From positions 1 to 36,503 of the IMG/VR virus record IMGVR_UViG_2718218136_000002: a stretch of DNA of 36,503 bases. One strand, given 5' to 3'. A program made the position numbers and the translations under genes. Positions 1,226 through 15,836 of this stretch are shown piece by piece. A model generated the notes under the pieces. The model saw only the letters and a list, made by a program, of their open reading frames with translations, did not search any database and was not told where the DNA came from. Source of the DNA: a virus (Duplodnaviria; Heunggongvirae; Uroviricota; Caudoviricetes). Each line of letters starts with the position of its first letter. The first letter of the stretch is position 1.

Positions 1226-1593
1226 AAAAGTAAAAGAATCTGCGATCTCAAAGTTATTGTGTTATTTTTATGTGAGCAGAAGATATTCATCAGAAACGAT
1301 TATGTAAATCATTTTATTTTGCCGACGGCCTGATTGTCGAAAGAAAAGAATACCCCCGTATTCCCTGAATAGATTGACTTTTTTATCCAACCATACTTCA
1401 GCGCACTGCGTTTAAAAAATGCTTCTTTCTTATGTGGAATATCATCATTTCATCATGATGTCTTTGATGAGCGGTGAACACAATACACTTGCGCTGTCTC
1501 TTCAGGATGAATCCCCTGGTCTGGTGCCTGTGGGCTGATGTTGCAGCAGAGCTAAGGTCGCTTAAACGCTACTCAGTATTCACTTTTCAGAGG

Positions 1594-4500
1594 ATGAAAT
1601 TTATGAACAGGACCAGTCCCCATTATTGTCGCCGCTCAGTACTTTCCTTATTGATATCTGCCTTGATATATGCCCCGCCTGGGATGACGGCCTTCACTCC
1701 TGATGTTATTGGTGTGGTAAACGATGAGACTGTAGATGGCAGCCAAAGAGTAGATGAACGAGGTACAACAAATAACACTCATATTATCAACCATGGCCAG
1801 CAGAATGTTCATGGCGGGGTATCTAATGGAAGTCTTATTGAATCGGGTGGATATCAAGATGTAGGAAGTCATAACAATTTTGTGGGGCAGGCTAATAATA
1901 CAACCATTAACGGAGGAAGACAGACAATTCATGACGGGGGCATTTCCACCGGTACGATAATCGACAGTGGCAATCAGGACGTTTATACAGGTGGTATCAG
2001 CAATGGAACGACAATTAAGGGTGGTAATTCACACATAAGTGGGGGGACTGCGAATGGAACCATCATTGATGGTGGAGGGCAGAAAGTAACAACTCAGGGG
2101 CATGTTGATGGTACAACGATAAATAAGTCCGGTTATCAGGACATCACGCAAGGAAGTATTGCAACGAACACAATCATAAATGGTGGACGACAGTATGTTG
2201 AACAGAGCACAGTAGGAACAACCACCATTAAAAATGGCGGTGAGCAAAGAGTATATGAAAGCCATGCGCTGGACACGACGATTGAAGGTGGAACTCAGTC
2301 TCTGAATAATAAGTCAACGGCAAAAATACTCAGATCTATTCTGGTGGTACGCAAATTGTTGATTACACCAGCTCCTCGGATGTTATTGAAGTTTATTCCG
2401 GTGGCGTGCTTGATGTTAGTGGTGGTACGGCAACAAATGTTACCCAGCACGATGGTGCAATTTTAAAAACAAACACTAACGGTACGACGGTGAGCGGTAC
2501 GAATAGTGAAGGTGCATTCTCCATCCACAATCACGTGGCAGACAATGTGTTGCTGGAAAACGGTGGTCATTTAGACATAAACGCATATGGTTCGGCAAAC
2601 AAGACGATTATTAAAGATAAAGGAACAATGTCAGTTTTAACGAATGCTAAAGCTGATGCGACCCGAATAGATAACGGCGGGGTAATGGATGTTACCGGAA
2701 ACGCGACCAATACCATAATCAATGGTGGTACACAGAATATTAATAATCATGGTATTGCCACGGGTACCAATATCAACGGCGGAACGCAAAATATCAAGAG
2801 CGGCGGGAAAGCTGACACGACAATTATATCCTCCGGGAGCCGGCAGGTTGTTGAGAAAGATGGTACGGCAACTGGCAGCAATATTAGCGCCGGAGGCTCG
2901 CTGATTGTCTATACCGGTGGTATTGCACATGGGGTTAACCAGGAGACGGGCAGTGCTTTAGTTGCCAACACGGGCGCAGGGACTGATATTGAAGGATACA
3001 ACAAGCTCTCTCACTTCACTATTACCGGAGGGGAGGCTAATTATGTTGTGCTGGAAAATACCGGCGAACTGACGGTAGTGGCTAAAACCTCGGCGAAAAA
3101 TACTACCGTTGATGCTGGCGGTAAGCTGATTGTCCAGAAGGAGGCTAAAACAGATACCACCAGACTTAATAATGGTGGCGTTCTGGAGGTTCAGGACGGT
3201 GGTGAGGCTAAGCATGTTGAGCAACAATCCGGCGGCGCATTAATTGCTTCCACAACTTCCGGAACCCTTATCGAAGGAACCAACAGTTATGGTGATGCTT
3301 TCTACATCAGGAATTCAGAAGCTAAAAATGTAGTGCTGGAAAACGCTGGCTCATTAACAGTCGTCACTGGTTCCCGGGCAGTTGATACGATTATTAATGC
3401 CAACGGCAAAATGGATGTTTATGGAAAAGATGTTGGCACTGTACTCAATAGTGCTGGCACCCAAACAATATATGCCAGTGCCACTTCTGATAAAGCAAAT
3501 ATCAAAGGTGGCAAGCAAACGGTATATGGATTAGCCACTGAGGCAAATATCGAAAGTGGTGAACAAATTGTTGATGGTGGGTCAACAGAGAAAACACACA
3601 TCAATGGTGGCACGCAAACCGTTCAGAATTATGGTAAGGCAATCAATACCGATATCGTCTCTGGCCTACAACAAATTATGGCAAACGGGACAGCGGAAGG
3701 TTCCATTATTAATGGGTGTTCACAGGTAGTTAATGAGGGCGGTCTGGCTGAAAACTCGGTGCTTAATGACGGCGGCACACTCGATGTGCGGGAGAAAGGC
3801 AGCGCAACGGGGATACAGCAGAGTAGCCAGGACGCTTTGGTTGCAACCACCAGGGCGACGCGGGTCACAGGAACACGCGCGGATGGCGTCGCGTTCAGCA
3901 TCGAGCAGGGTGCGGCGAACAATATCCTGCTGGCAAATGGCGGCGTGTTAACCATGGAGTCAGACACCTCTTCTGACAAAACACAGGTCAATACGGGCGG
4001 ACGGGAGATCGTCAAAACAAAAGCCACTGCGACAGGCACGACGCTCACCGGCGGCGAACAAATCGTCGAGGGGGTGGCGAATGAGACAACGATTAACGAC
4101 GGCGGAATACAAACAGTTTCAGCTAACGGAGAGGCAATAAAAACAAAGATCAATGAAGGCGGTACGCTGACAGTTAACGATAATGGCAAAGCGACAGATA
4201 TCGTCCAGAACAGCGGTGCCGCTCTCCAGACGAGCACGGCTAACGGTATTGAAATCAGCGGTACTCACCAGTACGGCACTTTTTCCATTTCCGGCAATTT
4301 AGCGACCAATATGTTGCTGGAAAATGGCGGTAATTTATTGGTATTAGCAGGTACCGAAGCTCGCGACTCCACGGTTGGCAGCGGTGGAGCCGCCAACGGC
4401 AGTTATCGCAGCAACGGGCTGGGCGGTCACATTGAAACCGGGATGCGATTTACCGATGGTAACTGGAACCTGACGCCGTATGCATCGTTAACGGGGGTTC

Positions 4501-4863
4501 ACCGCTGATAACCCTGAATATCATTTATCCAATGGCATGGAATCGAAATCAGTCGATACCCGCAGTTTATATCGTGAACTGGGTGCAACGCTGAGTTACA
4601 ACATGCGTCTGGGGAACGGTATGGAAGTTGAGCCGTGGCTGAAGGCGGCTGTGCGCAAAGAATTTGTCGATGATAACCGGGTGAAAGTGAATAGTGACGG
4701 TAATTTCGTCAATGATTTGTCGGGCAGACGTGGAATATACCAGGCAGGTATTAAAGCCTCATTCAGCAGTACGTTAAGCGGGCATCTTGGGGTGGGGTAT
4801 AGCCATGGTGCCGGTGTGGAATCCCCGTGGAACGGGGTAGCTGGTGTGAACTGGTCGTTCTGA
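1594..4863 (+). pseudogene. Autotransporter adhesin (AIDA/YpjA-like passenger repeats plus C-terminal beta-domain), disrupted by frame changes
   Basis: Signal-peptide-like start (MKFMNRTSPHYCRRSVLSLLISALIYAPPGMTA). Long arrays of about 19-aa repeats (..G.ATNT.INGG.Q.V..). Three consecutive ORFs in different frames (1474-2466, 2406-4508, 4537-4863). The last ends in the typical autotransporter terminal W-S-F, but the beta-domain is too short. Confidence 0.6.
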
Positions 4864-5185: not shown

Positions 5186-6211
5186 TTAGCGATGCCAGTT
5201 GAGGTTATGAAGTGGATTTTTGGTAACGGCATCTTCCAGATGATCCGGTGCAAAATGGGCATAAATCATGGTCATTTTAATATCAGCGTGCCCTAAAATA
5301 TCCCTCAATACTAAAATGTTTCCGCCGTTCATCATAAAGTGGCTGGCGAAAGTGTGGCGCAGAACGTGGGTACATTGACCTTCAGGTAGTTCAATTCCAG
5401 CTCGTTTTACCGCACGCTCAAAAGCCTTTCGGCATGGTGTGAATAACTTTCCCCTGTTTTTGGGTAATTCTTCATACAGTTCCTGAGAAATAGGAACAGT
5501 TCGGTTTTTCTTTCCTTTTGTTTTGGTATAGGTAATTCGATACTTTGATATCTGGTTACCTTGCAGGTTTTCGGCTTCGCTCCATCTTGCCCCGGTTGCC
5601 AGACAAATCTTGGCAATCATTAGCAGACTGGGACTTTGAGATTCAGCACAAGCGTCAAGCAGGCGTTTGATTTCATCAGCAGCAAGGAACGCCAGTTCAC
5701 CCTCTGCAATTTTGAAAGTTGGCAGACCGGCGAGAGGGTTGGGTGCAGACCAATGTCCCAGCTTTTTCAGTGTGCCAAAAACTGAGGATAGGTTACGTTG
5801 TTCAAGGTTCACCGTTCTGGGCTTAACTGGTGACATGAGCACACCATCTTCGTTTTTGACCTCACCTTTTAATCTGGCTTCCCGGTATTTTGTGAAATCA
5901 CCTGCTGTCAATTCAGAAGCGATGGGATCGCCAAGCCCATTACAAATGATTTTTAACTTAGCCATTAATCGCTTAGGGTCAGCGAGTGTCTGACCGTACA
6001 GGGAATACCATTGCTCAATCACTTCTGACAGTTGTCGCCGATCTTCCTTTTCTCCCAGCCAAGGTTTCTTGTTTACCTCGTCCATGGTGAAATTCTCAAA
6101 CGCAATGGCTTCGCCTTTCGTCGCAAATTGTTTGCGTACGCGTTTGCCATCTCGCCCGTTTGGGTAGCATTCACATAACCACTTTCCGTTCGGCTGTTTT
6201 CTGATGGTCAT
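5186..6211 (-). CDS. int: Phage integrase, tyrosine recombinase (P2/186 Int type)
   Basis: 341 aa with the C-terminal catalytic region ...HVLRHTFASHFMMNGGNILVLRDILGHADIKMTMIYAHF (R..H..Y motif context). Lies next to the att repeat. Confidence 0.93.
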   Translation of the reverse strand: MTIRKQPNGKWLCECYPNGRDGKRVRKQFATKGEAIAFENFTMDEVNKKPWLGEKEDRRQLSEVIEQWYSLYGQTLADPKRLMAKLKIICNGLGDPIASELTAGDFTKYREARLKGEVKNEDGVLMSPVKPRTVNLEQRNLSSVFGTLKKLGHWSAPNPLAGLPTFKIAEGELAFLAADEIKRLLDACAESQSPSLLMIAKICLATGARWSEAENLQGNQISKYRITYTKTKGKKNRTVPISQELYEELPKNRGKLFTPCRKAFERAVKRAGIELPEGQCTHVLRHTFASHFMMNGGNILVLRDILGHADIKMTMIYAHFAPDHLEDAVTKNPLHNLNWHR

Positions 6212-6212
6212 A

Positions 6213-6845
6213 TCAAAGGCTCTTAATGATTTTCAGTGCGCGGCCTATTACCTTAATGTCATCCAGTTCGCACTCAAACGATGAATCATCCTGATGCACT
6301 ACTAATCTGTTTCCCGGGAGTCGTGTCAATTTTACAATGCTTTTTATCCCGTCGATGTCCACTAACCACGTACCATTTACTGGTGGTGTTTGGTTGCGAT
6401 CTATTAAATAAGAATCACCAGAAGTAGTCACCAGCAGCAGGTTGCTTGAGTCTGAGGGGAGTATGCTGCTATCAATGATTGCTTTTCCAGCATCGACCAA
6501 TAAACCACCGTTGAGAGTTGCCTTTTCAATTTCAGGAGATACAAGCTCAGAAAGAGGTTTAACCTTGCTGGGGTTCACGGAATTGATATTTTTTTTAGGG
6601 TCAATGTTTGAACCTGGCTCGCCCTGTCCGGTGGTTAGCCATAGTAAAGAAACTCCTGTTTCCAAGGCGCACTGAATCACCCATTCTGCGGGAAAGCTAT
6701 CTCTTAAGTATCTGTTTGCCATAGTGCTTTTTGATGCACCTAAGTGATCGCAAAGTTGCTGTCTGGACTTGAAATCATAGGCTGCCATTAGTCTATGGAT
6801 AGCCTCTCTTCCCCCTGTATTCTCGCCAGCTTTTACCTGTATCAT
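6213..6845 (-). CDS. cI: 186-type CI immunity repressor
   Basis: 210 aa. N-terminal ...NRYLRDSFPAEWVIQCALETGVSLLWLTTGQGEP matches the 186 CI-type HTH region as I recall it. Sits directly upstream of int on the same strand. Confidence 0.8.
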   Translation of the reverse strand: MIQVKAGENTGGREAIHRLMAAYDFKSRQQLCDHLGASKSTMANRYLRDSFPAEWVIQCALETGVSLLWLTTGQGEPGSNIDPKKNINSVNPSKVKPLSELVSPEIEKATLNGGLLVDAGKAIIDSSILPSDSSNLLLVTTSGDSYLIDRNQTPPVNGTWLVDIDGIKSIVKLTRLPGNRLVVHQDDSSFECELDDIKVIGRALKIIKSL

Positions 6846-6964: not shown

Positions 6965-7213
6965 ATGAGCAACGACATTTCAATTCGTGTACCAAAAGTG
7001 ATGGCGACACCTGCAGAGTTCGCGGAATGGGAAGGCCGCTCTCGCGGTTCGGTATATCAAATGATTCATAATGGTAAACTCGCTAAGTTTTTGGAAAGAA
7101 AGGAAAAACCGAAAGACAGAGTATGTATACGTTACCTTGAGTACAAAAAGGAACAAGTCAGGAAAAACATGGGCCAATCCAATTTCAACTTTAATGTCAT
7201 CGTTGGTGACTAA
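6965..7213 (+). CDS. apl: Apl/Cox-like small DNA-binding excisionase/regulator
   Basis: 82-aa basic protein, first gene of the rightward early operon opposite cI. Position and size match 186 Apl. Confidence 0.6.
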   Translation: MSNDISIRVPKVMATPAEFAEWEGRSRGSVYQMIHNGKLAKFLERKEKPKDRVCIRYLEYKKEQVRKNMGQSNFNFNVIVGD

Positions 7214-7245: not shown

Positions 7246-7755
7246 ATGTTTGATTACAAAATTTCCAAACATCCGCATTTTGATGAAGCCTGTAGAACTT
7301 TTGCACTACGTCACAATATGGCGAAGCTGGCAGAACGTGCAGGAATGAATGTCCAGACTCTGCGAAACAAACTCAACCCAGATCAACCGCATCAGCTCAA
7401 TGCGCCAGAAATCTGGCTGCTTACCGATCTGACTGAAGATTCAACGCTGATAGATGGTTTTCTGGCACAGATTCACTGCCTGCCATGTGTACCGATTAAT
7501 GAGGTAGCAAAAGAGAAACTGCCGCATTACGTCATGAGTGCAACCGCAGAGATCGGGCGTGTTGCTGCAGGTGCGGTATCTGGCAATGTAAAAACCAGTG
7601 CAGGTCGTCGTGATGCTATCAGCAGCATTAACTCTGTAACACGACTGATGGCGCTGGCTGCTGTTTCATTGCAGGCCCGTTTACAGGCTAACCCGGCGAT
7701 GGCGAGTGCAGTTGATACCATGACTGGCCTTGGTGCTTCATTCGGTTTGCTGTGA
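7246..7755 (+). CDS. cII: CII-like lysogeny establishment activator (186 CII type)
   Basis: 169 aa, MFDYKISKHPHFDEACRTFALRHNMAKLAERAGMNVQTLRNKLNP... resembles 186 CII from memory, and the position after apl fits. Confidence 0.75.
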   Translation: MFDYKISKHPHFDEACRTFALRHNMAKLAERAGMNVQTLRNKLNPDQPHQLNAPEIWLLTDLTEDSTLIDGFLAQIHCLPCVPINEVAKEKLPHYVMSATAEIGRVAAGAVSGNVKTSAGRRDAISSINSVTRLMALAAVSLQARLQANPAMASAVDTMTGLGASFGLL

Positions 7756-8796: not shown

Positions 8797-9650
8797 GCAC
8801 CATCCTGAAATGGGCGGGTAATAAAACCGCCATTATGTCCGAACTGAAAAAATACCTTCCTGCTGGCCCGCGACTGGTTGAACCTTTCGCGGGTTCTTGT
8901 GCTGTGATGATGGCGACGGATTACCCCAGCTATCTGGTTGCGGATATTAATCCTGATTTAATCAACCTCTATAAAAAGATTGCCGCTGATTGCGAAGCGT
9001 TTATATCTCGTGCCAAAGTTTTATTTGAGGAAGCAAACAGTGAGCTGGCTTATTACAACATAAGACAGGAGTTTAATTACTCAACTGAAATTACTGATTT
9101 CATGAAGGCGATATATTTCCTGTATCTCAATCGTCACGGTTACCGTGGTTTATGTCGCTATAACAAGAGCGGGTATTTCAACATTCCCTACGGTAATTAT
9201 AAAAATCCGTATTTCCCTGAAAAAGAAATTCGCGCATTTGCAGAGAAAGCCCAGCGGGCAACGTTTATCTGCGCGAGCTTTGATGAAACGCTGGCGATGC
9301 TGCAGGTGGGGGATGTGGTGTATTGCGATCCGCCGTATGACGGTACGTTTTCCGGCTATCACACTGATGGTTTCACTGAAGATGACCAGTATCACCTGGC
9401 ATCCATTCTTGAACATCGGTCATCAGAAGGACATCCGGTCATTGTTTCTAACAATGACACATCCCTGATTCGTTCGCTGTATCGCAATTTTACTCACCAC
9501 TATATCAAGGCAAAACGCAGCATCGGCGTGTCAGCTGGCGAGGGTAAATCTGCAACAGAAATCATTGCTGTTTCCGGGCCGAGCTGCTGGTTGGGATTTG
9601 ATCCTTCGCGTGGCGTGGATAGTTCTGCCGTGTACGGAGTGTGTGTATGA
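8793..9650 (+). CDS. dam: DNA adenine N6-methyltransferase (Dam family, orphan)
   Basis: Motif [10 protein letters not shown] and motif IV DPPY (VYCDPPYDG). No adjacent restriction endonuclease gene. Confidence 0.9.
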
Positions 9651-12061
9651 GTCATGACGATATGAACAATTGCAGCGGCTTTAACGAGGCCGCCGCAGCA
9701 TTTTCATGGAACGGCTCGAAAAAGGCCATTAACCCTTATCTGGACCCGGCGGAAGTTGCGCCGGAGTCTGCACTTTCAAACCTGATCACTCTGTACGCTG
9801 CCGATAACGAGCAGGAACAACTGCGCCGCGAGGCACTGAGTGAGCAGGTCTGGGAGCGTTATTTCTTTAATGAATCCCGTGATCCTGTCCAGCGCGAAAT
9901 GGAGCAGGATAAGCTCATTAGCCGGGCAAAGCTGGCGCATGAGCAGCAGCGTTTTAATCCGGACATGGTCATTCTGGCGGACGTAAACGCCCAGCCTTCC
10001 CATATCAGCAAGCCGCTGATGCAACGTATTGAATACTTCAGCAGCCTGGGCAGGCCAAAGGCTTATTCCCGCTATTTGCGTGAGACGATTAAGCCATGTC
10101 TGGAGCGACTGGATTGTGTACGTGACAGTCAGCTATCTGTTTCTTTCCGTTTTATGGCAAGCCATCAAGGGCTGGAGGGTCTGCTGATCCTGCCTGAAAT
10201 GAGCCAGGATCAGGTGAAACGCCTGTCCACCCTGGTAGCAGCGCATATGAGCATGTGTCTTGAGGACGCTTGTGGTGATTTGTATGCCACCGATGACGTT
10301 AAGCCAGAAGAAATCCGCAAGACATGGGAAAAGGTGGCAGCGGAAACCCTGCGTCTGGATGTTATCCCGCCTGCGTTTGAGAAACTTCGTCGGAAAAGAA
10401 ACCGCCGCAAACCAGTGCCCTATGAACTCATCCCGGGTTCGCTGGCGCGTATGTTGTGTGCCGACTGGTGGTATCGGAAATTATGGAAGATGCGTTGCGA
10501 ATGGCGGGAAGAGCAGTTGCGTGCTGTCTGCCTGGTCAGCAAAAAAGCATCCCCCTATGTCAGCTATGAAGCCGTGATGCATAAACGTGAGCAGCGCCGT
10601 AAGTCGCTGGAGTTTTTTCGTTCTCATGAACTGGTGAACGAAGACGGCGACACGCTGGATATGGAAGATGTGGTAAACGCCAGCAGCAGCAACCCGGCGC
10701 ATCGCCGCAATGAGATGATGGCCTGTGTTAAAGGTCTGGAGCTTATCGCGGAAATGCGCAGTGACTGTGCCGTTTTCTACACTATCACCTGTCCGTCGCG
10801 TTTCCATTCCACGCTCAATAACGGCAGACCAAACCCGACCTGGACAAACGCGACGGTAAGACAAAGTAGCGATTATCTGGTCGGCATGTTTGCTGCATTT
10901 CGTAAGGCTATGCATAAAGCCGGGTTGCGCTGGTATGGCGTGCGGGTAGCTGAGCCGCATCATGACGGTACTGTGCACTGGCATCTCATGTGTTTCATGC
11001 GTAAAAAAGACCGCCGAGCCATCACTGCATTACTGCGTAAGTTTGCCATCCGTGAAGACCGTGAGGAGCTGGGCAATAACACGGGACCACGCTTTAAGTC
11101 TGAGCTGATAAACCCGCGCAAAGGTACGCCAACAAGCTATATCGCGAAATACATCAGTAAGAACATTGACGGGCGTGGTCTGGCTGGGGAGATCAGCAAG
11201 GAAACGGGTAAATCCCTGCGTGATAACGCTGAATACGTTAATGCCTGGGCGTCTCTGCATCGTGTTCAGCAATTCCGCTTCTTTGGCATTCCGGGGCGTC
11301 AGGCTTACCGTGAACTGCGATTGCTGGCTGGTCAGGCGGCAAGGCAACAGGGTAACAAAAAAGCAGGTGCGCCGGTACTGGATAACCCGCGTCTTGATGC
11401 AATCCTGGCTGCTGCTGATGCTGGTTGTTTTGCCACCTACATCATGAAGCAGGGCGGCGTACTGGTTCCCCGCAAATATCACCTCATCAGAACTGCTTAT
11501 GAAATCAACGAAGAACCGACCGCATATGGCGATCACGGTATTCGTATTTATGGCATCTGGTCACCCATTGCAGAGGGCAAGATCTGCACTCATGCGGTGA
11601 AGTGGAAAATGGTTCGTAAGGCCGTTGACGTTCAGGAGGCGGCAGCCGACCAGGGCGCTTGCGCCCCTTGGACTCGTGGCAATAACTGTCCCCTTGCTGA
11701 AAATTTGAACCAACAGGAGAAAGATAAATCAGCTGATGGGGACACCAGAACGGATATTACCTGCATGGATGACAAGGAGTTGCACGATTACCTGCACAGT
11801 ATGAACAAAAAAGAGCGCCGGGAACTGGCTGCAAGGTTACGTCTGGTTAAACCGAAACGGCGTAGAGACTACAAACAGCGAATTACAGACTATCAACGAC
11901 AGCAGCTCGTCTATGAACTGAAGTCCAGAGGATTTGATGGCAGCGAGAAAGAGGTCGATTTACTCCTTCGCGGCGGCAGTATTCCGTCAGGAGCAGGCTT
12001 GCGTATCTTCTATCGGAACCAGCGTTTGCAGGAAGATGATAAGTGGCGAAACCTGTATTAA
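9647..12061 (+). CDS. A: Replication initiation endonuclease (P2 gpA / 186 A, rolling-circle initiator)
   Basis: About 805 aa with the conserved catalytic region ...[14 protein letters not shown].... Position after the early genes. Confidence 0.9.
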
Positions 12062-12153
12062 TTACGCGGGTTAACAATTCGTGCTCTTAATAATACCAGG
12101 CATATCAGGCTGATGAACGTAAAAAAACGTTTTACATCAGTAAGATTATTATA

Positions 12154-12173
12154 TACTGTAAATATAAACAGTG
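12154..12173. promoter_or_regulatory. LexA (SOS) box
   Basis: TACTGTAAATATAAACAGTG = CTGT-N8-ACAG, matching the consensus taCTGTatatatatACAGta. About 40 bp upstream of the 12215 ORF. Confidence 0.65.
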
Positions 12174-12214
12174 GTTATACATACAGTATTGCTTGTGGTG
12201 TCATAGGAGGAAAG

Positions 12215-12403
12215 ATGCAGGACTATTTTTTGGAGTCTTTGAAGCTCCAGCGCATTGATTTTTTTCTTAAGCTTGTAGCGGCTAGTGAGTGTAGTGATGA
12301 AGAGAAGGGGCTGGCCCTGCAGTGGGTTTCTGAACTGACAGATGAACTCATGGCAAAAATCAGAAGCCACGAATACAACCGCTCAATGGATGTCATCAGC
12401 TGA
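12215..12403 (+). CDS. Small hypothetical protein, candidate antirepressor-module partner (Tum-like N-terminal part?)
   Basis: 62 codons with AGGAGG RBS. Immediately downstream of the LexA box and 10 nt upstream of the DinI-like gene. Confidence 0.45.
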   Translation: MQDYFLESLKLQRIDFFLKLVAASECSDEEKGLALQWVSELTDELMAKIRSHEYNRSMDVIS

Positions 12404-12413
12404 GGGGTCTTTT

Positions 12414-12647
12414 ATGCGCATTGAAATAATGATCGATAAAGAGCAGAAGATTAGCCAGTCTACCCTGGACGCCCTTGAATCCGAGCTTTACCGCAATCTG
12501 CGCCCCCTGTATCCCAAAACGGTAATTCGTATCCGCAAAGGTAGCTCTAACGGTGTGGAACTGACTGGGCTGCAACAGGACGAAGAAAGAAAACAAGTGA
12601 TGAAAATTATGCAGAAGGTGTGGGAAGACGACAGCTGGCTGCATTAA
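12414..12647 (+). CDS. DinI-family protein (SOS-associated; Tum C-terminal domain-like)
   Basis: MRIEIMIDKEQKISQSTLDALESELYRNLRPLYPKTVIRIRKGSSNGVELTGLQQDEERKQVMKIMQKVWEDDSWL resembles E. coli DinI (MRIEVTIAK...ISEILQETWESADDW). Confidence 0.75.
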   Translation: MRIEIMIDKEQKISQSTLDALESELYRNLRPLYPKTVIRIRKGSSNGVELTGLQQDEERKQVMKIMQKVWEDDSWLH

Positions 12648-12782
12648 GAAACGTTGCTGGCGTCTGAACTTGCTTCTGGCGTCAGCAAGGTTGAACAACG
12701 AGCCCTTGCGAGGCGTTAGCTCTGTAGTGCATGTCTATGCCGCATGAGATCGCATGATCGTTTGAGGATCGTTTTTGCTAAG

Positions 12783-12806
12783 GCCCGCCAGAACTGGCGG
12801 GCTTTT
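12783..12806 (+). terminator. Rho-independent terminator ending the early rightward operon
   Basis: GCCCGCCAG aa CTGGCGGGC stem followed by TTTT. Confidence 0.6.
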
Positions 12807-12851
12807 GCGTAGATCATGCAGGTGCATGAAAACCACTACATAAAGCGGGCA

Positions 12852-12870
12852 GGCGTGGCGGGGATACGAG
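12852..12870. other. Putative cos site (cohesive-end sequence)
   Basis: GGCGTGGCGGGGATACGAG. The first 13 nt match the P2/186 cohesive end as I recall it (GGCG(A/T)GGCGGGGAAAGCA-). Located between the early-operon terminator and the Q gene, where P2-like cos lies. Confidence 0.4.
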
Positions 12871-12954
12871 CGCGCGCAACGGGGTAAAATGGCCAAAATC
12901 CGGCACAGCCTCTGGCCCGCTGGCGGCCTCATTTAGTGGAGGGGGGAGATGTCA

Positions 12955-12994
12955 GGGCAAAAAGAAACGCCCCGCAGAATGCTGCTGAGGCGTT
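12955..12994 (-). terminator. Rho-independent terminator downstream of Q (end of the leftward P-Q operon)
   Basis: On the minus strand: AACGCC stem, loop, GGCGTT, then TCTTTTTGC. Confidence 0.55.
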
Positions 12995-13029
12995 GTGAGA
13001 GTTGGTCGGTTATTGATGTTATGAGTATG

Positions 13030-14073
13030 TCAGCTTCGTTTGCCCTTAAGTCCTAAGTCATAGGCTTCAAAACGGATAACCTCTTCATCCAGCCAGTCAT
13101 TCAGCTCCTGCAGTCGCTTTTGCAGGGGCATCAGTTCATTGCGGACGAAGACACGGCTCGCTTTTTCCACATCCCCAAAGCCGCCAGTGTTGTTGGGAAT
13201 GATGCCCATCATTTGCGGCGGTACGCGGTGAGCCGCCATCATGTCATCGCGGCTGACGTTCTTGATGTTCAGAAATTCATCCTTCGCCGCGACTTCCGAC
13301 AACGGGATAATCTGAATGCCATCTTTTTTGCCGTTAGGCGAGTACATAAACAGGTTGCGGAAGTTGCCCGGTCCTTTAGCACTTTTCATTGCCTTGCGGA
13401 TGTTGTTCACATCCTCCTGGTTCTGTGCGGCGTCGGTCATGTACATGATGAAGCCTGCGTGGCTGCCGTTAATGTAATACTTGCGGCGGAACAGCGTGGC
13501 GGATTCGTTGAGCAGAGCTGACGGAATGGCAGAAAGGTAACCCGGCAGACCATAAATCTCCTGGTTGATATCCGGCTCCATCAGGTGGAAGACGTTACCT
13601 TTTGTGAACTGATACGGCTGTGTCGTCAGGCTGTATTGCACAAACCAGTATGTTTCAAGGTCAAGCCCGCGTCGGGTGTATTTTGCCAGTGCAGGCTCCA
13701 GCGAAATAACTTCACCAAAGCGGTTCGTGCGTTTCTCCAGGTAGGCGTTACCAAAAACCAGATAGTCCTGCACAAAACGGGTAAATGCCTGCTGGCTGAG
13801 AAGGCGATGTGGAATATAGGTACTGCTGATAATGTCACGCTTAACACTGATCGGGGAGCTGTGGTGCACGGCGGCGCGGAAGGTGCGCGCCAGTCCGTCA
13901 AAGCTGACGGGCGGCTCATACCAGCGATCCATCTGTACGCATTCCACATAGTCCAGCAGTTCGCGGCGGTCCAGTACAGGAATGGGATCACCAAAGCTGA
14001 AAGCCTCCGCAACGGGTTTTTTAGTTTCTTCTGCAGTTACGGTTTCGCCTGGCGCGATATGTTCTTTCATCAA
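13030..14073 (-). CDS. Q: Portal protein (P2 gpQ-like)
   Basis: 347 aa. Size, order (Q then P leftward) and sequence character match the P2 portal. Confidence 0.92.
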   Translation of the reverse strand: MMKEHIAPGETVTAEETKKPVAEAFSFGDPIPVLDRRELLDYVECVQMDRWYEPPVSFDGLARTFRAAVHHSSPISVKRDIISSTYIPHRLLSQQAFTRFVQDYLVFGNAYLEKRTNRFGEVISLEPALAKYTRRGLDLETYWFVQYSLTTQPYQFTKGNVFHLMEPDINQEIYGLPGYLSAIPSALLNESATLFRRKYYINGSHAGFIMYMTDAAQNQEDVNNIRKAMKSAKGPGNFRNLFMYSPNGKKDGIQIIPLSEVAAKDEFLNIKNVSRDDMMAAHRVPPQMMGIIPNNTGGFGDVEKASRVFVRNELMPLQKRLQELNDWLDEEVIRFEAYDLGLKGKRS

Positions 14074-15836
14074 AAAATCTCCACAATATTGCTGGTATTG
14101 GCGGACTCGCCCTGCAGCGGTTCGTTAAACAGTGCGTGCATGGTTGCCCATGCCAGATCGGCATGGCTGGCTTCTTCGCTGCGGCTGGCTTCGTAGGTCG
14201 GGCGGTTGCCACTGGCGGTGGTGGCGCGACGGATTGCCATGAATGACTGCGCAATGTCGGTATGTCCGGCGTCAAACTCCAGACGGCGGTGGCTGATAAT
14301 GTCGTAGGCCTTGAGTACCAGGGCGTTTTTAACGTTGGGGTTGTAGACAAACTCCCGGACGGCAGGAAAGAACGCTTTCACGTTCTCGTAAACCCCGTGA
14401 CCGACGCCGGTTGAGTCGATACCGATATAGGTCACGTTGTACTGTTCGGTCAGTTTTTTGATGGCGTCAGCCTGGGCGCGGAAGTCCATCCCGCGCCACT
14501 GGTGACGCTCAAGAATGCGGAACTTACCGCCTGGCACGGCTGGCGGTGCCACCACCACGCATCCGGCGCTGTCGCCGTTCTGCGTACCTTTTGCCGGGTC
14601 ATAACCGATCCACACTTCGCGCCAGCCAAACGGGCGCAGGGCCAGTGCATGAAAGTCGGTCCAGACTTCCCAGCTGTCCACCATGCACGCCTGCAATTCG
14701 CTGAGCGGGAACACAGATGCGAGATCGTCAACGAACTCGCACATCAGCAGGTTCTGGTATTCGTCCGGGCTGTACTCCATGCGCAACTGGTCGAGGTCGA
14801 ACAGGTTACAGCCGCCGCGTACCGCATCTTCCACGGTGACTATCTGGCGGTATTGCCCGTCTGCGCACAGCAGGCCGGGGGCCAGATTGCTGTGGGACAG
14901 GTCGATGTCCACCTTATCGGCTTTGTTGCGCCCACGGTTGAACAGCGCACCGGACCAGAACGGATAAGCACTGTGTGTCAGGCTGGATGGCGTGGAAAAA
15001 TAGGTCTGTCGCCATTTCTTGTGAATAGCCATACCGGAAGCCACTTTGCGCAGCTCCTGGAATTTCGGTATCCAGAAATATTCATCCAGATACAGGTTGC
15101 CGTGGTAACTCTGGGCCGTGCGGGCATTGGTGCCGAGGAAATACAGTGTGGCCCCGTTGGGAAGCACCATCGGATCGCCTTTCAGCTCCACCTCCACTTC
15201 TTTGGCGAAGTCGATGATGTACTGCTTAAAGACGTGAGCCTGTGCCTTACTGGCAGAAAGGAAAATCTGGTTACGTCCGGTAAGCAGGGCGTCAATCAGG
15301 GCTTCACGGGCAAAGTAAAAGGTCGCACCGATCTGGCGTGACTTCAGCAGGTTGCGGATGCGGTTGGTTTTTCCGGCTTCCCACCAGTGGCGCTGATAGT
15401 TGAACATGGAGGAATGGAAGATTTCTTCCAACTTCTCAATCTGTTCATCGGTGAAAACGTTCTTTTCCGGCTGACGACGCGGGCCTTTGTTGCGGTTGGC
15501 GACGTTAGGGTTTAAGTCGGCTTCGTTGCCGCCATTGTTAAACTTGCCGATCCGCGCATGGCGCTCCGACTGGCGCGCCAGCAGATCAATCTCTTTGAAA
15601 TCTTTCCCTTCTTTGTGCTCCTTCATAATGAGCTGGCAGTAGCGTGCGGCGGTGGTGAGCTGCATCTGATCCAGCGGCCCATAGTCACCCCACTTGTCGC
15701 GTTTTTTCCAGCTGTGAACGGTTGCAACTTTCTCGCCCAGCATTTCAGCAATGCGGGCTACGCGGTATCCCTGAAAGTACAGCAGCATGGCCTGCCGACG
15801 GGGATCGAGATCTGCGGGTGTCAGTGTGGTGTTCAT
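14070..15836 (-). CDS. P: Terminase large (ATPase) subunit (P2 gpP-like)
   Basis: 588 aa. Start overlaps the Q stop. Divergent from O as in P2. Confidence 0.93.
   Translation of the reverse strand: MNTTLTPADLDPRRQAMLLYFQGYRVARIAEMLGEKVATVHSWKKRDKWGDYGPLDQMQLTTAARYCQLIMKEHKEGKDFKEIDLLARQSERHARIGKFNNGGNEADLNPNVANRNKGPRRQPEKNVFTDEQIEKLEEIFHSSMFNYQRHWWEAGKTNRIRNLLKSRQIGATFYFAREALIDALLTGRNQIFLSASKAQAHVFKQYIIDFAKEVEVELKGDPMVLPNGATLYFLGTNARTAQSYHGNLYLDEYFWIPKFQELRKVASGMAIHKKWRQTYFSTPSSLTHSAYPFWSGALFNRGRNKADKVDIDLSHSNLAPGLLCADGQYRQIVTVEDAVRGGCNLFDLDQLRMEYSPDEYQNLLMCEFVDDLASVFPLSELQACMVDSWEVWTDFHALALRPFGWREVWIGYDPAKGTQNGDSAGCVVVAPPAVPGGKFRILERHQWRGMDFRAQADAIKKLTEQYNVTYIGIDSTGVGHGVYENVKAFFPAVREFVYNPNVKNALVLKAYDIISHRRLEFDAGHTDIAQSFMAIRRATTASGNRPTYEASRSEEASHADLAWATMHALFNEPLQGESANTSNIVEIF

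Follow-up and report, generated by a model that had tools for sequence, protein, structure and literature searches.

Genomic setting of the module

The stretch of DNA analysed here, called the window throughout (36,503 nt), holds a P2-family prophage whose immunity and replication genes are of the 186 type. Between the replication gene A (9641–12061) and the portal gene Q (13030–14073, minus strand) lies a short module made up of a predicted LexA (SOS) box at 12154–12173, a 62-codon gene (ORF1, 12215–12403, plus strand) and a 77-codon gene of the DinI family (ORF2, 12414–12647, plus strand, ATG to TAA). The prophage also carries the integrase gene (5186–6211, minus strand), the gene for the immunity repressor CI (6213–6845, minus strand), an apl-like gene (6965–7213) and cII (7246–7755). 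CI, the presumed target of ORF1, matches the Pfam families Phage_CI_repr, which is its HTH domain, and Phage_CI_C. The gene for the terminase P (14070–15836, minus strand) lies on the other side of the portal gene.

The module is the last operon ahead of the right genome end and falls within the final 600 nt before a cos-like site (GGCGTGGCGGGGATACGAG, 12852–12870), the first 13 of whose 19 nt are the same as in the annotated cos of 186. A 701-nt query around the module (12050–12750) found a copy of 100% identity in Escherichia coli strain 2824, where it also sits in a prophage with unchanged gene order. The preliminary description had taken this slot for a variable-cargo position equivalent to that of tin and old in P2, and the comparison bears this out: the equivalent slot of P2 holds orf91, tin and old ahead of cosR. 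Relatives of the window carry other cargo at the point after the DinI-like part, phage 500465-1 having a TIR-domain gene there, for instance, and the differing contents of 500465-1 and P2 agree with a variable slot.

LexA box, promoter and transcript end

The predicted LexA box (TACTGTAAATATAAACAGTG) is supported by its match to the consensus and by its conservation. Its core, CTGTAAATATAAACAG (12156–12171), is the only CTGT-N8-ACAG in the window, although a 16-mer core by itself is within chance expectation, with 0.49 expected per window and at least one occurrence in 44 of 100 shuffles. The complete 20-mer is far more specific: it differs from the consensus TACTGTATATATATACAGTA at three positions, is single in the window and was equalled in none of 100 window shuffles (0.00 expected). 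Among 270 related loci taken from bacterial genomes and viral contigs, 257 also have the exact core no more than 120 nt ahead of the homologous gene. The shuffles of the 20-mer and this conservation together rule out a chance occurrence of the box. The arrangement first read from the sequence, a consensus LexA box ahead of a 62-codon ORF with a DinI-family gene following after 10 nt, is thus present in all its parts.

A putative SOS promoter, the counterpart of p95 in 186, can be read from the plus strand as a −35 hexamer TTTACA (12131–12136), a spacer of 17 nt and a −10 hexamer TACTGT (12154–12159) that lies within the left arm of the LexA box. TTTACA with a 17-nt spacer recurs in 22 of the 26 box-carrying upstream regions of the Fels-2 type, the sequence class to which ORF1 belongs. 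The annotation of 186 p95 (U32222) likewise gives TACTGT as the −10 hexamer; it makes up the left LexA-box arm, and TTCACA stands 18 nt upstream of it. The promoter geometry of the PSP3- and 186-type loci is equivalent to that of the window. A consensus promoter scan returned 0 sites because TACTGT fits TATAAT at only three of six positions. Since the box covers the −10 hexamer, bound LexA would occlude it.

A second, degenerate LexA-like element (CAGTGGTTATACATACAGTA, 12169–12188) lies in the 5′ UTR. A second ACAG located 10–12 nt past the box is present in 19 of 33 upstream regions of the Fels-2 type versus 0 of 200 regions of the other three types. In promoters of the Fels-2 type, such an element may serve as a further, weak LexA site by which the induction threshold is tuned.

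Two RNA structures were predicted downstream of the genes, both on the plus strand. A hairpin directly after ORF2 (12650–12692; MFE −23.5 kcal/mol, z-score −3.6) has no U-run and is possibly a partial terminator like t95a of 186, a likeness that is one of position only. A GC-rich hairpin followed by UUUUG (12780–12806; MFE −25.1 kcal/mol, z-score −5.0) has the form of an intrinsic terminator and is the probable end of the operon; it was missed by a terminator scan and detected by folding. An Rfam search of positions 12000–13100 gave no meaningful match.

ORF1 and its kinship with the N-terminal part of Tum

ORF1 runs from the ATG at 12215 to the TGA at 12401–12403. Four nucleotides ahead of its start is a strong Shine–Dalgarno sequence, AGGAGG (12205–12210, plus strand), which is kept as AGGAGG in relatives. 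Gene callers differ on the start of this gene, giving products of 62 to about 100 aa. A 96-aa form (12113–12403), common in gene calls, would extend across both the promoter and the LexA box, and 18 of 33 relatives have stop codons in frame within the added stretch; the 62-aa form is therefore the correct one.

In comparisons with relatives at a dS of about 0.9 (range 0.8–1.1), the dN/dS of ORF1 was 0.04–0.12, which denotes strong purifying selection, and third codon positions held 20–22 of about 30 differences. Clustering of the family at 50% identity gives 67 representatives, almost all of them 55–75 aa long. AlphaFold2, run with the family alignment, predicted a two-helix hairpin (helices 2–23 and 28–61) with a pLDDT of 88. 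This fold is uninformative: a Foldseek search of the model against the PDB returned generic helical hairpins only, none with E ≤ 0.001, and a sequence search of the PDB with the family profile returned nothing. Pfam and NCBIfam contain no family for ORF1, and the protein is labelled ‘hypothetical’ almost everywhere in the records. Judged by the conservation of its sequence, ORF1 is a real gene.

Pairwise BLASTP found no similarity between ORF1 and Tum of coliphage 186, with which it shares about 21% identity, and profile methods were therefore needed to detect their kinship. ORF1 matched three PHROG families, phrog_698 (E = 6e-38), phrog_8554 (E = 1e-8) and phrog_1993 (E = 2e-3), and the first 70 residues of 186 Tum matched these three as well, in register with ORF1 (E = 6e-6, 3e-12 and 1.5e-23, respectively). 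When a 28-member alignment of the ORF1 family was compared with a 17-member alignment of the N-terminal part of Tum (Tum-N) in hhalign, the two were aligned over 48 columns, from residue 1 of both onward, with a probability of 96.5% and E = 7e-10. These profile comparisons support homology between ORF1 and the antirepressor part of 186 Tum at its N-terminus. The preliminary description had named an untranslated ORF, or one unrelated to Tum, among the outcomes that would speak against it; the selection on ORF1 and the hhalign match point the opposite way.

ORF2, a DinI-family gene

ORF2 starts 10 nt past the stop codon of ORF1, with GAGGGG at 12402–12407. Its product belongs to the Pfam family DinI (PF06183), matching profile positions 1–63 of 63 with E = 3e-23 and 82.3 bits against a cut-off of 24.2. 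It aligned over its full length with E. coli DinI (PDB 1GHH; E = 1.6e-6) and retains the acidic C-terminal segment ...WEDDSW. It is under purifying selection as well (dN/dS 0.03–0.10). Although it shares its Pfam family with the chromosomal DinI of E. coli, it scored 43.8 bits against the NCBIfam DinI equivalog NF007893, below the cut-off of 111. By these profile scores, ORF2 is a phage DinI-like paralogue and not the host gene. From its first residue, it aligns with residues 71–145 of 186 Tum at 41% identity (42% in a second comparison), and from residue 1 onward also with Tum95.5, which 186 makes from a GTG start inside tum and which the 186 record labels a modulator of SOS induction.

The claim that the functions of Tum are here divided over two cistrons is therefore supported at both ends of the protein, ORF1 corresponding to the N-terminal part and ORF2 to residues 71–145.

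Comparison with known SOS-controlled phage operons

The closest counterpart of the module is found in Fels-2 of Salmonella LT2, where STM2728 and STM2726.1 follow gene A in the same order and with the same 10-nt spacer as ORF1 and ORF2. ORF1 is 97% identical to STM2728 and ORF2 99% identical to STM2726.1, and the LexA box, the −35 hexamer and the spacing between them are all identical to those of the window. Fels-2 differs in having a third gene downstream, STM2726 (243 aa), which equals orf97 of 186 in length and position and which the window lacks, and its CI is only 57% identical to that of the window (N-terminal domain 82%, C-terminal domain 59%).

PSP3 also has a split pair behind a LexA box that overlaps TACTGT, and its TumB is 77% identical to ORF2. 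However, its TumA, at about 22% identity to ORF1, represents a separate sequence class of one family; its intergenic spacer is 3 nt and its promoter spacer 18 nt, and its CI N-terminal domain is of another class. In the PSP3 GenBank record, the description of tumA reads ‘similar to 5' end 186 tum; UV induction of prophage’, while that of tumB reads ‘similar to dinI and 3' end of 186 tum’.

In 186, the p95 operon (tum, orf97) likewise lies between gene A and cos with a LexA box over the −10 TACTGT, and the CI protein has the same two Pfam domains. The N-terminal part of its Tum is homologous to ORF1 and its C-terminal part, which is also made alone as Tum95.5, is related to ORF2. As had been stated at the outset, 186 Tum is a single LexA-controlled polypeptide with a DinI-like second half, of 146 aa according to U32222, our alignment and Lemire 2011 (PMC3121763). 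In the window, by contrast, the two parts are separated by the TGA at 12401–12403 and the 10-nt spacer, and the module thus belongs to the split tumA/tumB variant rather than to 186 Tum proper. The orf97 of 186 is also absent: on the plus strand from 12647 to the portal gene there is no ORF of at least 60 aa, hence no orf97 homologue.

The two-cistron arrangement is already known from the PSP3 record and from Lemire 2011 (PMC3121763), according to which tum is divided by a stop codon in both Fels-2 and PSP3, with Bunny 2002 given as the source. The same article reports, second-hand from a personal communication, that the upstream gene of PSP3 bears the antirepressor activity. The title of Bunny 2002 (J Bacteriol) states that the lethality of a lexA null mutation is owing to the Fels-2 prophage. 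A literature search for the names ‘TumA/TumB’ found nothing.

A more distant parallel is offered by the dinI-gfoA/gftA-irsA operons of the prophages Gifsy-1, -2 and -3, which are LexA-repressed and combine a DinI homologue with a small antirepressor directed against a non-cleavable repressor (Lemire 2011, PMC3121763). Here, the likeness is drawn from their description; in these lambdoid phages, dinI comes first, so that the order is reversed, and the repressors are of another family.

Distribution and gene architecture

Of the 5426 complete E. coli genomes, 1124 (21%) contain the module, and it also occurs in 56–66 records of phages of Klebsiella, Escherichia, Salmonella, Yersinia and Cronobacter. 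Many prophages of Klebsiella, Salmonella, Citrobacter, Enterobacter and Pantoea carry it as well. The gene architecture was surveyed in 274 loci, namely the best matches to four seed sequences representing the 186, PSP3, Fels-2 and ESSI-2 types of the N-terminal part. In the 186 type, this part was fused to a DinI-like part in 79 of 80 loci, none was split and one was solo, that is, without a DinI gene. Fusions were found in none of the other types: the 80 loci of the PSP3 type comprised 50 split and 30 solo forms, the 34 loci of the Fels-2 type, which is that of the window, 21 split and 13 solo forms, and 79 of the 80 loci of the ESSI-2 type were solo, with no split form. Across the four types, the fusion in Tum is therefore peculiar to the 186 lineage and is not the rule. 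Given that solo Tum-N genes also stand behind a LexA box, the DinI gene is dispensable for the persistence of the module.

A proposed model of SOS induction

We consider, with high confidence, that this region serves a Fels-2/186-like (P2-family) E. coli prophage as its SOS-induction operon, in the split tumA/tumB form. The model described for 186 is that LexA represses the operon, that DNA damage removes LexA, and that Tum then binds CI reversibly and blocks its binding to the operators, whereupon the prophage is induced (Shearwin 1998 and Lamont 1989, cited second-hand; Lemire 2011, PMC3121763). The CI of the window has the domains PF07022 and PF16452, as does 186 CI, and gave no match to an S24 peptidase domain. 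For a CI of the 186 type without a matched peptidase domain, an antirepressor route is needed.

Applied to the window, this model would run as follows. In a healthy lysogen, LexA on the box at 12154–12173 would cover the −10 hexamer and keep the operon silent. After DNA damage, LexA self-cleavage stimulated by RecA would free the promoter and give rise to a single mRNA ending at 12780–12806. The product of ORF1 would then bind CI, which has no self-cleavage domain, and keep it off its operators, so that the lytic promoter becomes active and induction of the prophage follows. The product of ORF2, as the counterpart of the C-terminal part of Tum, would not be an antirepressor but would tune RecA filaments; it probably modulates their activity, and hence the SOS signal in its strength or timing. 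We infer LexA binding, transcription and the interaction of ORF1 with CI from the likeness to 186 and its relatives, and the same holds for the inactivation of the window's CI by its own ORF1, which would act via the N-terminal domain of CI.

Covariation of Tum-N with the CI repressor

The CI of the window is 34% identical to 186 CI and 57% identical to Fels-2 CI. Set beside the 97% identity of ORF1 to its Fels-2 counterpart, the latter value weakens the case for a functional pairing of ORF1 with CI. The same discrepancy extends to other phages: where ORF1 is 97–98% identical to that of the window, the CI proteins are only 39–57% identical to the window's. The divergence falls in the linker and C-terminal domain, and identity in the HTH domain at the N-terminus is 62–100% among phages with the ORF1 type of the window, as against 38–42% for 186 and PSP3.

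The identity of Tum-N was correlated with that of the CI N-terminal domain (r = 0.84) over 215 unique Tum-N/CI pairs from the best matches to the four seed sequences, a signal that amounts to three or four independent classes and to contrasts between them only, the correlation within classes being weak or absent. Correlations of Tum-N with the CI C-terminal domain (0.69), the adjacent A gene (0.61–0.67) and cII (0.49) were lower. The partial correlation was 0.66 for the N-terminal domain given the C-terminal domain and 0.03 for the C-terminal domain given the N-terminal one. At the 50% identity level, there were 4 Tum-N classes, 3 classes of the CI N-terminal domain and 27 of the C-terminal domain, and a class-to-class rule between Tum-N and the CI N-terminal domain was obeyed by 211 of the 215 pairs. 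Among the pairs of the Fels-2 type, 26 of 27 fell in one CI N-terminal-domain class, while the TumA type of the window was paired with 6 clusters of the CI C-terminal domain and the ESSI-2 type with 18. One exception to the rule is a Pantoea stewartii locus (L040) that combines the ORF1 type of the window with a CI of the 186 type. The apl gene, which is part of the immunity module, covaries too.

It is possible, though we hold the idea tentatively and as somewhat short of an even chance, that Tum-N and TumA recognise the N-terminal HTH domain of CI and not its C-terminal oligomerisation domain; the covariation of sequence classes described here is what points to it. Only the second LexA-like element and the covariation of Tum-N with the N-terminal domain of CI go beyond the existing record, both as hypotheses.

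The divergence of CI among phages with nearly identical ORF1 proteins, along with the mixed pair in Pantoea stewartii, would also be expected if mosaic recombination had left the module mismatched to its own CI, so that it is still SOS-induced yet acts in trans on a co-resident P2-like prophage, or is idle. Antirepressors acting in trans are documented for Gifsy and Fels-1 (Lemire 2011, PMC3121763). We regard such a mismatch as very improbable: the changes in CI are concentrated outside the N-terminal domain, which stays within a single class in nearly all pairs of the Fels-2 type, and purifying selection persists on both ORF1 and ORF2.

The respective roles of ORF1 and ORF2

The reading of the module as a split tum operon assigns the antirepressor function to ORF1. 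A different division of labour, in which ORF2 is the true effector of induction, for example via RecA filaments, and ORF1 is accessory or unrelated, would fit the annotation of the two proteins, ORF2 alone having a curated family match. It would also fit U32222, which records that truncated, DinI-like Tum products ‘modulate SOS induction’. We nevertheless judge this very unlikely on several grounds. The CI of the window offers RecA no self-cleavage domain as a target, and ORF1 type follows the type of the CI N-terminal domain. Genes of the Tum-N type are kept under a LexA box with no DinI gene alongside in 79 of 80 loci of the ESSI-2 type, 30 of 80 of the PSP3 type and 13 of 34 of the Fels-2 type. 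In PSP3, the antirepressor activity is reported for the upstream gene, and in Gifsy a non-polar dinI deletion left induction unaffected (Lemire 2011, PMC3121763).

That ORF1 is a fortuitous, untranslated frame in the 5′ leader of a LexA-controlled dinI gene, as its mere 62 codons, its lack of a Pfam or NCBIfam family and its disputed start might suggest, is scarcely credible for a sequence with a strong ribosome-binding site, a low dN/dS and third-position bias, full-length conservation over at least 67 clusters at 50% identity, homology to the coding N-terminal part of Tum and a confidently predicted fold.

Implications for P2-family prophages

As a split tumA/tumB operon, the module is what allows DNA damage, and hence SOS-inducing antibiotics, to induce a P2-family prophage despite an uncleavable repressor. 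The practical value of the present analysis lies in better annotation, with ORF1 recorded as a tumA-like antirepressor, and not in discovery. The covariation with the CI N-terminal domain adds a hint at the binding surface and at possible crosstalk between prophages. If TumA does recognise that domain, one TumA type could inactivate CI repressors that share an N-terminal class despite very different C-terminal domains, and cross-induction among co-resident P2-like prophages would be possible.

Start of the SOS operon and its upstream region

The first gene of the SOS operon, the tumA-like ORF1 (12215–12403, plus strand, 62 aa), is called by many gene callers as a longer form of 96 aa (or 84–101 aa), corresponding to 12113–12403 of the window. 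This form starts 5′ of the promoter and its frame runs through the LexA box. The extension from 12113 was rejected as an artefact because in-frame stops interrupt it in 18 of 33 relatives.

A degenerate LexA-like element, CAGTGGTTATACATACAGTA, was found at 12169–12188, overlapping the right arm of the true LexA box (12154–12173). Its right half, ACAG, is perfect, while its left half reads GTGG in place of CTGT. A second ACAG at the same spacing is present in 19 of 33 Fels-2-type upstream regions, the sequence class to which the window belongs, compared with none of 200 from ESSI-, PSP3- or 186-type loci.

Phages related to ESSI-2 keep the LexA box and the TumA-like gene and have no DinI gene. 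The TumA-like gene lies at 901–1113 in the compared locus of Escherichia phage ESSI2_ev015 (L008), and the corresponding ORF of Cronobacter phage ESSI-2 (L009, about 863–1070) lacks any annotation.

Variable cargo downstream of the DinI-like gene

Among relatives, the cargo that follows the DinI-like gene varies. Both 186 and Fels-2 (STM2726) carry a homologue of orf97 3′ of the DinI-like part, whereas no such homologue is present in the window (12648–13029). At the same position, phage 500465-1 (L010) has a TIR-domain gene starting at 1633, SEN8 a DNA-binding protein and PSP3 gp37/gp38. A cos-like cohesive-end site, GGCGTGGCGGGGATACGAG, whose first 13 nt are those of the annotated 186 cos, occurs at 12852–12870; towards the right end of the packaged genome, the SOS operon is therefore the final transcription unit.

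Host flank of the prophage

The prophage adjoins a host autotransporter similar to ypjA/ehaD, which in the window is split into three ORFs (1474–2466, 2406–4508 and 4537–4863, within 1474–4863) but is a single CDS in Escherichia coli strain 2824 (L004, 1–10492). In strain 2824, ypjA and the integrase are also separated by an island of about 7 kb, with an AbaSI-family endonuclease, P4-like remnants and an AAA ATPase plus HNH, and the portal gene carries an IS26; the window has neither.

Variability of the CI repressor

In PSP3 (L016) and Klebsiella phage 4LV2017 (L012), the annotated cI frames run on upstream, in frame. The extension holds a second partial HTH-like segment (e.g. ...VIVRCCLDTGADINWLVNGE... 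in PSP3) and brings CI to roughly 290–310 aa.

Among 27 Fels-2-type TumA/CI pairs, the sole clear exception is Pantoea stewartii ATCC 8199 (L040, 2189–2764 and 9001–9186), which combines a Fels-2-type TumA, 84% identical to ORF1, with a 186-type CI, 60% identical to 186 CI. In this locus, the 110 nt upstream contain no exact LexA core.

The CI of Fels-2 is only 57% identical to that of the window, yet the tum genes of the two are 97–99% identical. When the CI domains of the window (cI, 6213–6845, minus strand) and of loci L019–L291 were compared, clustering at 50% identity (215 loci) placed the C-terminal domain in 27 clusters and the N-terminal HTH domain in 3. The C-terminal domain of this immunity repressor is hypervariable.
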